Positions 3,630 to 37,188 of a stretch of 46,999 nt of DNA are shown here, one piece after another (position 1 is the stretch's first letter; every line of letters begins with the position of its first letter). Below the pieces are notes generated by a model, which saw only the letters and a program-made list of their open reading frames with translations, was not told the origin of the DNA and ran no database searches. The position numbers and the translations under genes were made by a program. Source of the stretch: Candidatus Colwellbacteria bacterium (GTDB lineage Bacteria; Patescibacteriota; Minisyncoccia; UBA6257; Colwellbacteraceae); assembly GCA_023228665.1 (NCBI GenBank), contig JALOAR010000002.1, positions 1 through 46,999 on the forward strand. The letters are read 5' to 3'.

Positions 3630-4067
3630 ATGATTAAAAAAATAATAAACTTTTTTCTTAAATTTCAATTTGTTCGTTTTGCCATCATTGGGGTTATGAA
3701 TACAGGTTTGGATTTTGGAGTTTTAAACCTTTTAATATTCGCAACTGGAGTAAGGGAAGGTTTGTCTCTTGCGCTTTTAAATAGCATTTCTTTTTCCGTG
3801 GCAACAGCAAATAGTTATTTATGGAATAAATATTGGACTTTTAAGGATAAAGACGCTGTCCGCGCTGCGGAAATAGGGCAATTTCTTACTGTAAGTCTTA
3901 TTGGTCTTGGTATTAATTCAAGCATTGTTTATCTTATTTCAACCTTTATAGACCCTATTTTAGGCCTCTCACCGGCAATGTGGGTGAATGCTTCTAAGGT
4001 TATTGCTACCGGCATCGCTCTTTTTTGGAACTTTTTAGGTTATAAATTTATAGTGTTTAAAAAATAA
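3630..4067 (+). CDS. GtrA-family membrane protein
   Basis: Four TM helices. N-terminal RFAIIGVMNTGLDFGVLNLL and C-terminal FLGYKFIVF are typical of GtrA-like proteins. Confidence 0.75.
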   Translation: MIKKIINFFLKFQFVRFAIIGVMNTGLDFGVLNLLIFATGVREGLSLALLNSISFSVATANSYLWNKYWTFKDKDAVRAAEIGQFLTVSLIGLGINSSIVYLISTFIDPILGLSPAMWVNASKVIATGIALFWNFLGYKFIVFKK

Positions 4068-4086
4068 GTAAGAAACCTATGCTTTT

Positions 4087-4123
4087 AATACACGCATATC
4101 TGCACAGATATGCGTGTATTTTT
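4087..4123 (+). terminator. Intrinsic terminator after the GtrA-like gene
   Basis: Perfect inverted repeat AATACACGCATATCT / AGATATGCGTGTATT (about 15 bp stem) followed by TTT. Confidence 0.7.
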
Positions 4124-4158
4124 CATTTAATTTGAATAGATTTAGATATATTATAAAA

Positions 4159-4187
4159 TTGACAAGTTGCTAATTTTATGATAAAAA
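4159..4187 (+). promoter_or_regulatory. Sigma70-like promoter for the 4249 gene
   Basis: TTGACA, 17-nt spacer ending in TGa, then TAAAAA (extended -10 type). Confidence 0.45.
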
Positions 4188-4248
4188 GGCCCATACGCTT
4201 ACAGCGTAAATTTTATCCGCCGAAGAAGCGGAAAGGAGGTCTTTAAAA

Positions 4249-5559
4249 TTGGAAAATAAGAAAAATAGCCGGTTTTCATCAAAAACTCTCATTTGGTTGT
4301 GGTCGATTATTGTTCTCATGATTATTGTTGTGATTATCGGATGGGCAATCCATTACTTTTCTGGAAAAAATAATTCTGACGAAAAAATTGAAGAAGGTAA
4401 GGAAATAGAAACCACAATTGAGGATGAGGTTTCCGTTATTATTAAGAATAGCGAAGAATCCGAAAAAAACGAGTCAGATCTTTCTGAAAAAAGATTGACC
4501 TTAACTCTCCGAAAAGGGGATGAAAATGAAGAGGTCAAGATATTACAAGCTAAGCTTAAAAAACTTGGGTTGTATCAGGGAGAGATCCATGGTTGTTTTT
4601 CCGAGTCTGTTTATAAAGCTGTTATTGCTTTCCAAAAGCAAAATGGTTTGAAACAAGACGGAATTGTAGGGAGAAACACTCGCGCTGTCTTGAATGGAGA
4701 TCCGCTGCCGACTTCCGCGCCGATTTCCGGAGGATCAACTAAAATAGTGGTCCAAAAAGAAGTTGACAAGGAAGCTCTTAAAAAACTGGAAGATGAAGTA
4801 GAAAAGCTTACGGACGAGGTTAAGAAATTAACTGAAGAAAAAGAAGTTGACAAGGAAGCTCTTAAAAAACTGGAAGATGAAGTAGAAAAGCTTACGGACG
4901 AGGTTAAGAAATTAACTGAAGAAAAAGAAGGTGAACCTTCTCCGACTCCAGTTGCATTAAAACCTTCAGCAACATCATTAGGAGTAGAATTAATCAATAA
5001 CAATTCTGCCATCTTAACTGGTAAGGCTGATCCGAATGGCTTCCAAACTGATGTTTGGTTTCAGTACGGCTTAACAACATCGCTTAATAAAAAAAGCGAT
5101 GTCCAAAGCATCGGTAATGGCACTCTAGAACAAGATGTGTCAATACAAATTACCGGTTTGGAGCCAAGTACCAAGTATTGGTACAGGCTTTATGCAAAGA
5201 GTTCTAAAGGCCAAGATATCGGAACTCTAAAAAGTTTTGTTACTACCAGTTCTGGAACAACCAGTACCGCAGAAGCTAAAGCATCCTTGGTAGATTACAG
5301 AATCTTTCAAGTCAGCGGCAAAAGCTACATCGAGGCTTTTGTGATAGTTGAAGACCTTGAAAGCGGACTCTATCCGGAGAAATACTGGATCAAGTTCAAT
5401 GGCAATTCCGATGGAGAAGAAGACTGGGAAGGTGATCCTAACCATAAAAATGGCCGGTCTTACCTTAAGCCATCATCAAGCCAAGTAGAGATTCAAGCCT
5501 TTGTTAGGCTCTCTAATGGTGAGGTTTTGCAAAGTAAAATTGTGAAATATCCGGAATAG
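4249..5559 (+). CDS. Membrane-anchored surface protein: PG_binding_1 domain, duplicated coiled-coil segment, one Fn3-like module
   Basis: TTG start with AAAGGAGG 9 nt upstream. N-terminal TM helix. LQAKLKKLGLYQGEIHGCFSESVYKAVIAFQKQNGLKQDGIVG matches the peptidoglycan-binding domain pattern. DPNGFQTDVWFQYG module is shared with the next gene. Confidence 0.75.
   Translation: MENKKNSRFSSKTLIWLWSIIVLMIIVVIIGWAIHYFSGKNNSDEKIEEGKEIETTIEDEVSVIIKNSEESEKNESDLSEKRLTLTLRKGDENEEVKILQAKLKKLGLYQGEIHGCFSESVYKAVIAFQKQNGLKQDGIVGRNTRAVLNGDPLPTSAPISGGSTKIVVQKEVDKEALKKLEDEVEKLTDEVKKLTEEKEVDKEALKKLEDEVEKLTDEVKKLTEEKEGEPSPTPVALKPSATSLGVELINNNSAILTGKADPNGFQTDVWFQYGLTTSLNKKSDVQSIGNGTLEQDVSIQITGLEPSTKYWYRLYAKSSKGQDIGTLKSFVTTSSGTTSTAEAKASLVDYRIFQVSGKSYIEAFVIVEDLESGLYPEKYWIKFNGNSDGEEDWEGDPNHKNGRSYLKPSSSQVEIQAFVRLSNGEVLQSKIVKYPE
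4754..4930 (+). repeat. Perfect 84-bp tandem duplication (2.1 copies) inside the CDS
   Basis: Bases 4754-4846 are identical to 4838-4930. Encodes KEVDKEALKKLEDEVEKLTDEVKKLTEE twice, in frame. Confidence 0.95.
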
Positions 5560-36301: not shown

Positions 36302-36327
36302 AAATAATAACAAATTAAAACAATCTG

Positions 36328-36400
36328 TGCCGGCGGCAGGAATTGAACCTGCGACCTAGCGCTTATGAAACGCTCGCTCTAACCCCTGAGCTACGCCGGC
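36328..36400 (-). tRNA. tRNA with CAU anticodon, elongator type (Met, or Ile2 if lysidinylated)
   Basis: Reverse complement GCCGGCG TAGCTCAGGGGTTAGAGC ... loop UUCAUAA ... GGTTCAATTCC ... CGCCGGC A. G1-C72 is paired. Confidence 0.85.
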
Positions 36401-36410
36401 ATAAACCTTG

Positions 36411-36482
36411 TTGCGGAGGCGGGAATCGAACCCGCTCCTAGAGCTTATGAGGCTCTCGAGGTAACCAGTCCTCCACTCCGCG
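36411..36482 (-). tRNA. Initiator tRNA-fMet (CAU)
   Basis: The reverse complement starts CGCGGAG and ends CTCCGCAA. This gives the C1xA72 mismatch typical of bacterial initiators. Loop CUCAUAA. T-arm GGTTCGATTCC. Confidence 0.8.
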
Positions 36483-36607: not shown

Positions 36608-36684
36608 GCAGCGGTAGCTCAACTGGTTAGAGCGCTGCCCTGTCACGGCAGAGGTTGCGGGTTCGAGTCCCGTCCGCTGCGCCA
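36608..36684 (+). tRNA. tRNA-Asp (GUC) with encoded CCA
   Basis: GCAGCGG acceptor, D-arm TAGCTCAACTGGTTAGAGC, anticodon arm CTGCC-CUGUCAC-GGCAG, T-arm GCGGGTTCGAGTCCCGT, CCGCTGC-G-CCA. Confidence 0.9.
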
Positions 36685-36689
36685 TATAC

Positions 36690-36710
36690 AAAACCCCTTT
36701 AGGGGTTTTT
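36690..36710 (+). terminator. Terminator after tRNA-Asp
   Basis: AAAACCCCT / AGGGGTTTT followed by T. Confidence 0.7.
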
Positions 36711-36773
36711 ATATATCAATTCGGGACGAGAACGCCGGACTGAAGATTTTTCAGCAGAAAAATCGAAGGAGGC

Positions 36774-36838
36774 GCGGGTTTGAAGCAATTTCGAGCGACA
36801 GCGAGGAATTGACTAAAAACGAGTCCCGTCCGCTGCGC
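36774..36838 (+). pseudogene. Interrupted duplicate of the tRNA-Asp 3' portion
   Basis: GCGGGTT (= 36657-36663), then a 39-nt insert, then CGAGTCCCGTCCGCTGCGC (36820-36838, identical to 36664-36682). No 5' half or CCA. Confidence 0.7.
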
Positions 36839-36840
36839 AG

Positions 36841-36869
36841 AATAAAATCCCCACAAAGGATTTTATTTT
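36841..36869 (+). terminator. Hairpin and T-run after the duplicated tRNA fragment
   Basis: AATAAAATCC / GGATTTTATT, a 10-bp stem. Confidence 0.55.
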
Positions 36870-36885
36870 AAAAATTTAATCTTTA

Positions 36886-36914
36886 TTGACATAATCCCGT
36901 CAAATTAATAGTAT
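36886..36914 (+). promoter_or_regulatory. Strong sigma70-like promoter of the tRNA-like element
   Basis: Consensus TTGACA, 17-nt spacer, then TAGTAT. Confidence 0.6.
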
Positions 36915-36949
36915 ATATCTCCAAGACCTAGGTCTTTTAAAATAAACGT

Positions 36950-37073
36950 CGCGATGTACCTCAGCTGGTTTCAGTTTCTAATTAGAGAAGTCCGGAAAAA
37001 CTTTAATAAGAAAATAAGAGGATCTCTTTTTAAAAAGGGAAAGACGAGGGTTCAAATCCTTTCATCGCGGCCA
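36950..37073 (+). ncRNA. Atypical 124-nt tRNA-like RNA (acceptor stem, T-arm, G-CCA end; no canonical anticodon arm found)
   Basis: 5' CGCGATG pairs perfectly with 3' CATCGCG. T-arm GAGGG-TTCAAAT-CCTTT. Discriminator G plus encoded CCA. D-arm-like CCTCAGCTGGTT...TAGAG carries an insertion of about 12 nt. The interior is A/U-rich. Confidence 0.5.
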
Positions 37074-37131
37074 TTAGGCGAAGCGCCTCAACTCATTCAG
37101 CCATATCTGGCTGCTTGCTCTAAGCTTCGCC

Positions 37132-37164
37132 AAACGCCCCGGCAAATTGCCAGGGCGTTTTTTA
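37132..37164. terminator. Strong hairpin terminator shared with convergent gatA
   Basis: AAACGCCC-CGGCAA-A-TTGCC-A-GGGCGTTT followed by TTT. Confidence 0.75.
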
Positions 37165-37188
37165 TTTACCTATATTCCTAAATTATAA

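Follow-up and report, generated by a model that had tools for sequence, protein, structure and literature searches.

The 46,999-nt stretch of DNA analysed here (the window) is a low-GC (about 38%) housekeeping region that carries, in order, the genes for GatB, L11, NusG, GyrB, PheT and PheS, two tRNA-Met genes, a tRNA-Asp gene, a 124-nt gene that is the subject of this paper, and the genes for GatA, GatC, a hypothetical protein and LigA. The GatA protein is 75-76% identical to Parcubacteria group proteins and 69-72% identical to Colwellbacteria proteins, which places the host among the uncultured Patescibacteria (the candidate phyla radiation, CPR). The 124-nt gene lies at 36950-37073 on the forward (+) strand, and a preliminary description made from the sequence had presented its product as a tRNA-like RNA that does not fold as a cloverleaf. 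As discussed in the following sections, the RNA is a tRNA in whose D-loop an insertion separates G19/U20 from A21. Rather than a new class of RNA, it is probably a fast-evolving accessory tRNA or a degenerating one.

Fold of the 124-nt RNA

All four arms of a tRNA can be traced in the 124-nt RNA, and their arrangement as a cloverleaf emerges from reading of the sequence, RNAfold prediction, MAFFT alignment with homologues and counts of pairs. The acceptor stem joins CGCGAUG (positions 1-7, 36950-36956) to CAUCGCG by seven Watson-Crick pairs; this 3' strand (37063-37069), the discriminator G73 (37070) and an encoded CCA (37071-37073) together fill 37063-37073. U8 and A9 lead into the D-stem, whose 5' strand CCUC (C10 C11 U12 C13, 36959-36962) pairs with GAGG (G22 A23 G24 G25, 37018-37021). 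Between the two strands lies a D-loop of 55 nt (36963-37017), which begins A14 G15 C16 U17 G18 G19 U20 U, runs on through an insert of about 46 nt (roughly 36971-37015) and ends A A21; without the insert, an ordinary AGCUGGUU…A loop is left. A26 (37022) is followed by the anticodon arm (37023-37040), a 5-bp stem UCUCU/AGGGA that bears the 8-nt loop UUUUAAAA (37028-37035), then by the 5-nt variable loop AAGAC (A44 A45 G46 A47 C48, 37041-37045; AAGUC and CAGUC in the homologues described below) and by the T-arm GAGGG-UUCAAAU-CCUUU (37046-37062), in which two of the five stem pairs are G.U.

Class I tRNAs normally have a D-stem of 3-4 bp with a loop of 7-11 nt, and an anticodon loop of 7 nt with U33 and a purine at position 37. 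The acceptor stem of the 124-nt RNA, with its discriminator and CCA, is that of a class I tRNA, as is the T-arm with G53-C61 and U54 U55 C56 R57 A58. The D-arm departs from the class in the length of its loop, its stem and the nucleotides A14, G18, G19 and A21 being present nonetheless. The anticodon arm has its 5-bp stem, and the loop on it measures 8 nt in the window and in seven contigs from other samples and 7 nt in one variant contig (L095). Nucleotides that build the L-shape are canonical throughout, namely U8-A14, G15-C48, G18, G19, A21, Y11-R24 and G46 and, as read from the sequence of the T-arm, G53-C61, U54, U55, C56 and A58. Since all of these are intact, the RNA can still fold as a tRNA. 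Indeed, the minimum free energy (MFE) structure predicted by RNAfold for the native RNA (-31.4 kcal/mol, z = -1.79) is a four-way junction made up of the acceptor stem, a helix of 36959-36962 with 37018-37021, a helix in the CUUUUUAAAAAG region and the T-arm.

Two tRNAs of the same type that lack the insert occupy the corresponding position in Colwellbacteria-like relatives. One is an 80-nt gene in locus L140 (GCA_028710275.1), CGUGGCG-UA-CCUC-AGAUUGGUA-GAGG-A-…-AAGUC-GAAGG-UUCAAAU-CCUUC-CGCCGCG-A-CCA, and the other a 75-nt gene in locus L104 (GCA_028711965.1), UCCCUGG-UA-CCUC-AGUUGCA-GAGG-A-CUUCG-UUGCCUA-CGAAG-CAGUC-GCGAG-UUCAAAC-CUCGC-UCAGGGA-G-CCA. An unguided MAFFT alignment set the window GAGGA (37018-37022) against the 3' strand of the D-stem in both, and opened a gap of 46-48 columns in the D-loop relative to the 9-nt loop of L140 and the 7-nt loop of L104. 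All three genes keep UACCUC…GAGGA and the first six bases of the T-loop, UUCAAA. Counted over these three independent sequences, with the structure imposed from knowledge of tRNA, the cloverleaf pairs form in 98.8% of cells, against 49-55% when the 3' partners are slid by 1-3 columns and a mean of 82.5% in shuffled sequences. Both sides have changed in 11 of the 21 pairs (five of seven in the acceptor stem, three of five in the anticodon stem and likewise in the T-stem), and none of 500 shuffles reached the observed values of pairing and covariation. If the three genes are paralogues or mosaics, such covariation would prove tRNA ancestry rather than present function.

All the sequence elements named in the preliminary description are there, among them the 7-bp acceptor helix, the T-arm, G73 and the encoded CCA, and the first of its options, a tRNA with an unusual insertion, proved right. 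It had called for a covariation analysis, and the double-sided changes just described are the outcome. The statement that no cloverleaf forms does not stand, given the MFE structure and pairing far above that of the shuffled and slid controls. The error can be traced to the D-stem, which had been closed, after about 12 extra nt, on a GAG at 36985-36987; its 5' strand in fact pairs with the GAGG at 37018-37021, and the extra nucleotides then number about 46. With the stem closed too early, the remainder looked like an A/U-rich segment devoid of an arm, and the anticodon arm was taken to be missing; the palindrome CUUUUUAAAAAG within that segment is the anticodon stem-loop itself. The insertion sits in the D-loop, and the anticodon arm has not been replaced.

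The insert falls in the beta region of the D-loop, where length varies naturally, so the core could survive with the insert standing out from the elbow. Folded alone, the insert does no better than shuffled sequences (z = -0.86), and no second copy was found in the window or in the loci fetched from relatives. A repeat or a miniature inverted-repeat transposable element was rejected as its source, there being no other copy in that material and no significant fold.

Standard finders pass over the gene in its native form. ARAGORN, run by default and with its intron and tmRNA options, did not call the native 124-nt sequence and found the four ordinary tRNAs of the window, and Rfam at the gathering score returned nothing at the gene, its sole hit at E<=10 being an 8-bit match to the tmRNA clan, 39 bits short of the 47-bit gathering score. 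Once the insert was deleted in silico, ARAGORN called a tRNA(UAA), with 28 of 63 deletion variants recognised for the window allele and 35 of 63 for the L095-type allele. The preliminary description had expected that removing interior nucleotides would leave a molecule of tRNA size, which the deletion of about 46 nt bears out; it had also supposed that a standard tool might fold the gene as an ordinary tRNA, and this applies to the sequence cleared of its insert, where the call is tRNA(taa), but not to the native one. With relaxed settings ARAGORN parsed the full length as a tRNA-Phe(aaa) that has a long variable arm, a D-stem of 2 bp and an intron of 26 nt, a reading contradicted by the homologue alignment. 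An open reading frame (ORF) of 75 aa at 36954-37181 was rejected as protein-coding, being of low complexity and overlapping the covarying RNA structure.

Wider searches added no relatives of the gene. No parent isoacceptor could be named, the best identity to the tRNAs compared being about 68%, which is the background level. A covariance model (R1) behaved as a general tRNA model and brought out no further close family members in the 29 loci searched. A GatA-based scan of genome contigs gave only relatives at <=60% identity, none of them with the element, and a metagenome scan for the leader motif described below yielded 34 loci, among which the only real match was L123, which shares its contig with L081. 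Neither the viral scans nor a search of phages by BLAST returned a homologue, and the D-arm pattern matched merely ordinary phage tRNAs.

The expression cassette and its surroundings

The 124-nt gene is preceded by a sigma-70-type promoter, TTGACA-17-nt spacer-TAGTAT (36886-36914; -35 at 36886-36891 and -10 at 36909-36914), which scores 10/12 in a promoter scan and had been recognised in the preliminary description along with the leader. Taken alone, a promoter-like hexamer pair would be weak evidence, six being found in 1.2 kb where 2.4 are expected. A TTGAC-type -35 stands at the same position in seven of nine aligned cassettes from the window and its relatives, the -35 hexamers of L082 and L140 being out of register in the MAFFT alignment. 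The 5' leader, about 28-30 nt long (36922-36949), consists of a hairpin AAGAC-CUAG-GUCUU (AAGACCUAGGUCUU) followed by UUUAAAAUAAACGU, and includes the palindrome AAGACCTAGGTCTT (36924-36937) noted earlier. Its motif CAAGAC-N3-5-GGTCTTTTWAAAWA occurs once in the window, where none is expected by chance, and is common to the cassettes of the window, L081 and L104; the leader of L140 is related. On the 3' side, a trailer of 90 nt (37074-37163), marked by the inverted repeats I4 and I5, contains a long stem GGCGAAGC/GCUUCGCC (37078-37085 with 37125-37132) and a predicted intrinsic terminator, a stem at 37132-37160 followed by a U run, that a simple terminator scan did not list.

The order LigA-hypothetical-GatC-GatA-[slot]-tRNAs-PheS-PheT is kept in most of the relatives fetched through GatA, and what varies is the content of the slot, the position held in the window by the 124-nt gene. 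The 124-nt gene is absent from most relatives. Nothing stands in the slot in L086-L088, and L084 and L085 have a short insertion element there and no extra tRNA gene. A canonical tRNA-Ala(GGC) with G3.U70 and A73 occupies it in L097, L098, L099 and L142. Other relatives carry less regular tRNAs. That of L081 (4696-4770, -), which ARAGORN labels 'ggaa', is like tRNA-Asp in its 3' half; its D-stem is weak, its anticodon loop (UUGGAAAC) is 8 nt long and its T-loop reads UCCGAGU. In L082 (4634-4711, -) there is an 'Ile-GAU' whose acceptor stem is bulged and whose body looks Ala-like in the 5' part and Asp-like in the 3' half. L104 contains a GCC tRNA followed after 3 nt by a mosaic 'Asp-AUC' (4114-4190, -) with the anticodon arm of tRNA-Asp and an Ala-like T-arm, and the anticodon stem of the L140 tRNA is irregular. 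These cassettes can be aligned over their promoters and leaders, and in most of them CGU stands directly before +1. Judged from this alignment, it is the tRNA body that changes, within an expression cassette that is conserved.

The tRNA genes next to the slot differ in arrangement and in their 3' ends. The two tRNA-Met genes of the window (36327-36482, -) do not encode CCA, and tRNA-Asp (36608-36684, +) and the 124-nt gene do. In L097, L098, L104, L140 and L142, tRNA-Asp lies inverted with respect to the two tRNA-Met genes.

In the window, tRNA-Asp is separated from the cassette by an insertion element of 118 nt ('X', 36722-36839, +). It opens with CGGGACGAGAAC, which resembles an inverted T-arm, and its last 20 nt repeat the tRNA-Asp 3' end in direct orientation; the direct repeat D1 joins 36664-36696 with 36820-36852. 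ORF-less elements of about 118-190 nt lie just 3' of tRNA genes in the window, L082, L084, L097, L098, L099, L104, L140, L142 and L004, each with an inverted copy of the T-arm of the adjacent tRNA first and a direct copy of its 3' end last. One element backbone adjoins tRNA-Asp, tRNA-Ala and tRNA-Met in relatives, at times in tandem, and a hairpin near the right end has a conserved loop, GAG(C/U)GAC..CGAG, on a covarying stem. The elements have no match in Rfam. They may represent site-specific insertion elements in miniature or else an RNA not described before; we read them as scars or reduced versions of elements for which tRNA 3' ends serve as insertion sites. The mosaic tRNAs could plausibly have arisen by recombination at these places.

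In L013 (6794-7240), 443 nt separate tRNA-Asp from a downstream copy of its 3' end, and the segment includes an ORF of about 95 aa that looks GIY-YIG-like by eye (…YIGYSSNLKKRITDH…). This hints that these tRNA 3' ends are targets of nuclease-type mobile elements. A conserved region of about 200 nt, ending in a terminator, lies between the slot tRNA and gatA in L081 (about 4440-4690), L097 (about 4445-4700), L099 (about 3950-4150) and L142 (about 2270-2470), on the - strand in each case, and is absent from the window. Its motif AAGUAGCGGCGAGCGAAA resembles a segment of 23S rRNA domain I; a 23S rRNA remnant in the trailers of relatives was nevertheless rejected, there being no large-subunit rRNA or other Rfam hit at E<=0.1, and the motif does not occur in the window.

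Strain variation and the fate of the gene

An identical GatA protein is encoded on eight contigs from different samples, and one of these, L095, shows that the 124-nt gene exists in a second form. L095 differs from the window at four positions over 4.7 kb, and three of the four fall within 22 nt, inside the 124-nt gene (L095 4538-4660, -, compared with window 36950-37073; as this is a single contig, the differences are to be read with caution). The U5 run is one U shorter, which gives a 7-nt loop UUUAAAA with U33, the anticodon UAA and A37; an A in the variable loop is changed to G; and a G-to-A change at 37048 in the T-stem turns a G.U pair into A-U. The earlier statement that there is no 7-nt loop with U33 holds for the window, with its 8 nt, but not for this strain variant. 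Upstream, too, that strain probably differs, for the L095 contig breaks off 19 nt into the promoter. The clustering of the differences suggests gene conversion or a hot spot of mutation at this place; taken with the end of the contig inside the promoter, it could also reflect a rearrangement that is specific to the strain and lies immediately upstream.

With a probability of roughly 0.55, we take the 124-nt gene to be a pseudo-tRNA: cassette turnover may have left it behind as a relic that is still transcribed, or its RNA may have been retained, with its tRNA shape, for a role other than decoding. The accessory tRNA cassette that it occupies, which has a fast turnover and is situated between gatA and the tRNA-Asp/tRNA-Met cluster, consists of promoter, leader ending CGU, tRNA and terminator, in that order. 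Transcription from the sigma-70 promoter of the gene would yield a precursor of about 245 nt. RNase P would cut this precursor at C1, and the 3' end would be trimmed back to the encoded CCA, leaving the insert as a weak extra hairpin that protrudes at the elbow. The region around the cassette appears to have been rearranged repeatedly by short elements that duplicate tRNA 3' ends.

The elbow of tRNA is contacted by the ribosome and by many tRNA enzymes. An insert at this place, combined with an expanded anticodon loop able to pair with itself and with mismatched identity features, is why normal decoding has probably been lost. The loop UUUUAAAA is made up solely of A and U, as a slippage-prone U5A5 run, and in the RNAfold MFE prediction the loop region zips into a 7-bp helix closed by a 4-nt loop. 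G73, C1-G72 and the lack of a long variable arm do not match the identity of any isoacceptor that reads UUA. The gene has also drifted towards A+T: its G+C content is 40% (about 47% without the insert), compared with 55-66% in the four canonical tRNAs of the window. Further points against a normal decoder are the concentration in this gene of three of the four L095 differences and the failure of ARAGORN and Rfam to recognise the native sequence. Insert, 8-nt loop, mismatched identity elements and drift together suggest that the gene no longer decodes. A decaying tRNA had been among the options of the preliminary description, and it is a serious possibility in view of the 8-nt A/U loop, the low G+C content, the G.U pairs of the T-stem and the absence of the gene from most relatives; it shares the field with retention for a non-decoding role.

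That said, several observations weigh against a pseudo-tRNA. All stems are fully paired and all tertiary nucleotides canonical, which one would not expect of long neutral decay. Promoter, predicted terminator and encoded CCA have all been preserved. Acceptor pairs 5-68 and 6-67 have undergone double substitutions between the window and L140 which, if the two genes are orthologues, imply long-term selection for pairing. The whole 591-nt region is identical in seven of the eight contigs, which speaks for retention, and the L095 allele has a regular 7-nt loop with U33, UAA and A37. The insert could be tolerable, since it is sited where D-loops vary naturally.

The same observations are the ground for supposing that the gene is a functional decoder, its insert kept as a stable extra arm and the 124-nt RNA charged by some aminoacyl-tRNA synthetase. 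Such a tRNA would read UUA codons with the 7-nt allele, or UAA or a UUAA quadruplet with the 8-nt allele. This idea is in keeping with an intact L-shape core, intact stems and CCA and a strong promoter, with the placement of the insert in a naturally variable part of the D-loop and with the L095 allele, which has U33-UAA-A37. The cassette tRNA of L081 likewise has an 8-nt anticodon loop, and tRNAs with such loops that do decode exist, as exemplified by yeast mitochondrial tRNA-Thr1 (PMC4267643). We nevertheless consider a functional decoder unlikely. Under code 11 the genes of the window read as normal, with no indication of in-frame stops. By the rules known from E. coli work, tRNA-Leu is identified by a long variable arm and A73, whereas the RNA has a 5-nt variable loop AAGAC and G73, so it is not a tRNA-Leu(UAA) of the usual bacterial type. 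By analogy with other tRNAs, a 46-nt domain at the elbow should clash with contacts to the ribosome and to enzymes, and the all-A/U loop is predicted to be able to zip into the 7-bp helix with its 4-nt loop. The absence of the gene from most relatives tells against a decoder as well.

A bolder version of a working gene can be imagined. It would be a bacterial tRNA whose 46-nt D-loop sequence either forms a fifth arm or is removed by a pathway that is neither group I nor EndA-based, whose U5A5 loop slips between a 7-nt form (UAA) and an 8-nt form (UUA/UUAA), and which belongs to a Parcubacteria cassette that diversifies tRNA bodies by recombination at their 3' ends. This is speculative, and distinctly unlikely.

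Alternatively, the 46-nt segment might be an intron or intervening sequence, removed by splicing or by cleavage into paired halves to give a tRNA(UAA) of about 78 nt. In silico, deletion of the segment restores a textbook tRNA, and homologues free of the insert exist. Precedents come from the D-loop introns of Archaea and a red alga (PMC4090602, PMC3728597) and from the short 'enigmatic' introns in megaphage tRNAs (PMC6784885); the phage contig L145 has tRNA-like genes with insertions of about 55 nt. The host, however, is bacterial by its sigma-70 promoters, GatCAB and NAD-ligase. We know of no bacterial enzyme that splices such introns. Group I and group II introns have a catalytic core of more than 200 nt and usually reside in the anticodon loop; the insert, at about 46 nt, is far below this size, lies in the D-loop, is without significant structure when taken alone and has no counterpart among the intron families of Rfam. 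Moreover, the spliced product would still have the mismatched identity features. An intron is, on this evidence, highly unlikely.

The hallmarks of tmRNA (RF00023) are G3:U70, a tag reading frame, pseudoknots and a length of around 260-400 nt. Selenocysteine tRNA (tRNA-Sec) and allo-tRNAs have an 8/5, 9/4, 8/4 or 9/3 branch, a long variable arm and an extended D-stem (PMC5389517). A mimic of tRNA that lacks an anticodon arm and resembles tmRNA, Y-RNA, or allo-tRNA and tRNA-Sec, akin to the Ser/Sec/allo-tRNA option of the preliminary description, could appeal to the failure of tools on the native sequence, the weak 8-bit hit to the tmRNA clan and the discriminator G73, but is barely credible for an RNA with a 7/5 branch, a 5-nt variable loop, a regular 4-bp D-stem, a regular anticodon arm and covariation with its homologues, in which the 3:70 pair is C-G, ARAGORN finds no tmRNA, no tag reading frame, pseudoknot or Y-RNA feature is seen and the tmRNA hit itself falls 39 bits under the gathering score.

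Comparison with known systems

No large D-loop insertion in a bacterial tRNA was found in the literature searched, the coverage of which was incomplete, and the matched passages of a review of non-canonical tRNAs describe none (PMC7609411). If the 124-nt gene is functional, it would be, within that literature, the first known bacterial tRNA in which a large D-loop insertion is tolerated or processed, and it would tell something about the extent to which the tRNA elbow allows remodelling. CPR bacteria are known for odd insertions in their rRNA, and a functional gene would also bear on whether these bacteria process tRNA insertions as well. If it is a pseudo-tRNA, the gene would be a natural example of the rapid birth, remodelling and death of accessory tRNA genes, with small elements directed at tRNA 3' ends shaping the hot spot where this turnover goes on. 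Either way, finders that assume a D-loop of <=11 nt miss genes of this kind, so tRNA complements may be mis-counted in the genomes of Patescibacteria.

The canonical class I tRNA (RF00005), from which the 124-nt RNA descends, is the plainest point of reference. The 124-nt RNA shares with it the 7-bp acceptor stem, 4-bp D-stem, 5-bp anticodon and T-stems, 5-nt variable loop, UUCAAAU T-loop, tertiary nucleotides and CCA, and has its own promoter and terminator, as the neighbouring tRNA genes do. It differs in having a D-loop of 55 rather than 7-11 nt and an anticodon loop of 8 nt, and in falling below the thresholds of Rfam and ARAGORN.

Interrupted D-loops are found elsewhere, in Archaea and in Cyanidioschyzon, where tRNA introns occur at non-canonical positions that include the D-loop (PMC4090602, PMC3728597). 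There too, tens of nucleotides interrupt the D-loop of an otherwise normal tRNA gene. Those introns, however, have a bulge-helix-bulge motif at each exon-intron junction and are removed by the splicing endonuclease EndA, whereas the host of the window is a bacterium and removal of the insert is putative. The 'enigmatic' introns of Lak megaphage tRNAs (PMC6784885) are similar in being short, in not belonging to group I, in being missed by finders run in bacterial mode and in being present in only some variants. They are predicted in the anticodon loop, in contrast to the insert of the 124-nt gene, which lies in the D-loop of a chromosomal gene amid housekeeping genes and for which the viral scans gave no match. 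Viral contigs in IMG/VR contain tRNA-like genes, located within tRNA arrays, that ARAGORN does not call (L145 3155-3287 and 3298-3425, both -; L148 5317-5403, +). The two in L145 each carry about 55 extra nt, which in one case clearly interrupt the anticodon loop, and one viral tRNA-like gene has about 12 extra nt in the anticodon arm.

Anticodon loops of 8 nt are found in the classical +1 frameshift suppressor tRNAs. Yeast mitochondrial tRNA-Thr1 also has an 8-member loop on a normal 5-bp stem (PMC4267643), which the anticodon arm of the window gene resembles. These tRNAs, however, have defined decoding roles and normal D-loops, whereas the loop of the window gene is a slippage-prone U5A5 run that shrinks to 7 nt in one strain.

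For a pseudo-tRNA, the nearest precedent is tRNA-Other of Bacillus cereus, an expressed pseudo-tRNA that flanks a genomic island, takes no part in translation and can nonetheless affect the cell (PMC3399842). Both genes are tRNA-derived and lie at an integration hot spot, the expression of the 124-nt gene being a prediction; the two are unrelated in sequence, and tRNA-Other has no D-loop insertion. Integrating elements are known to create partial or hybrid tRNA genes (PMC9897764), and the duplicated tRNA 3' ends at the locus and the mosaic tRNAs of L082 and L104 recall that process. Unlike partial tRNA genes, the 124-nt gene is complete, with a perfectly matched acceptor stem, and is not a 3' fragment. 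By analogy, tRNA-Other and the partial or hybrid tRNA genes would be the closest functional and evolutionary parallels to the 124-nt gene.

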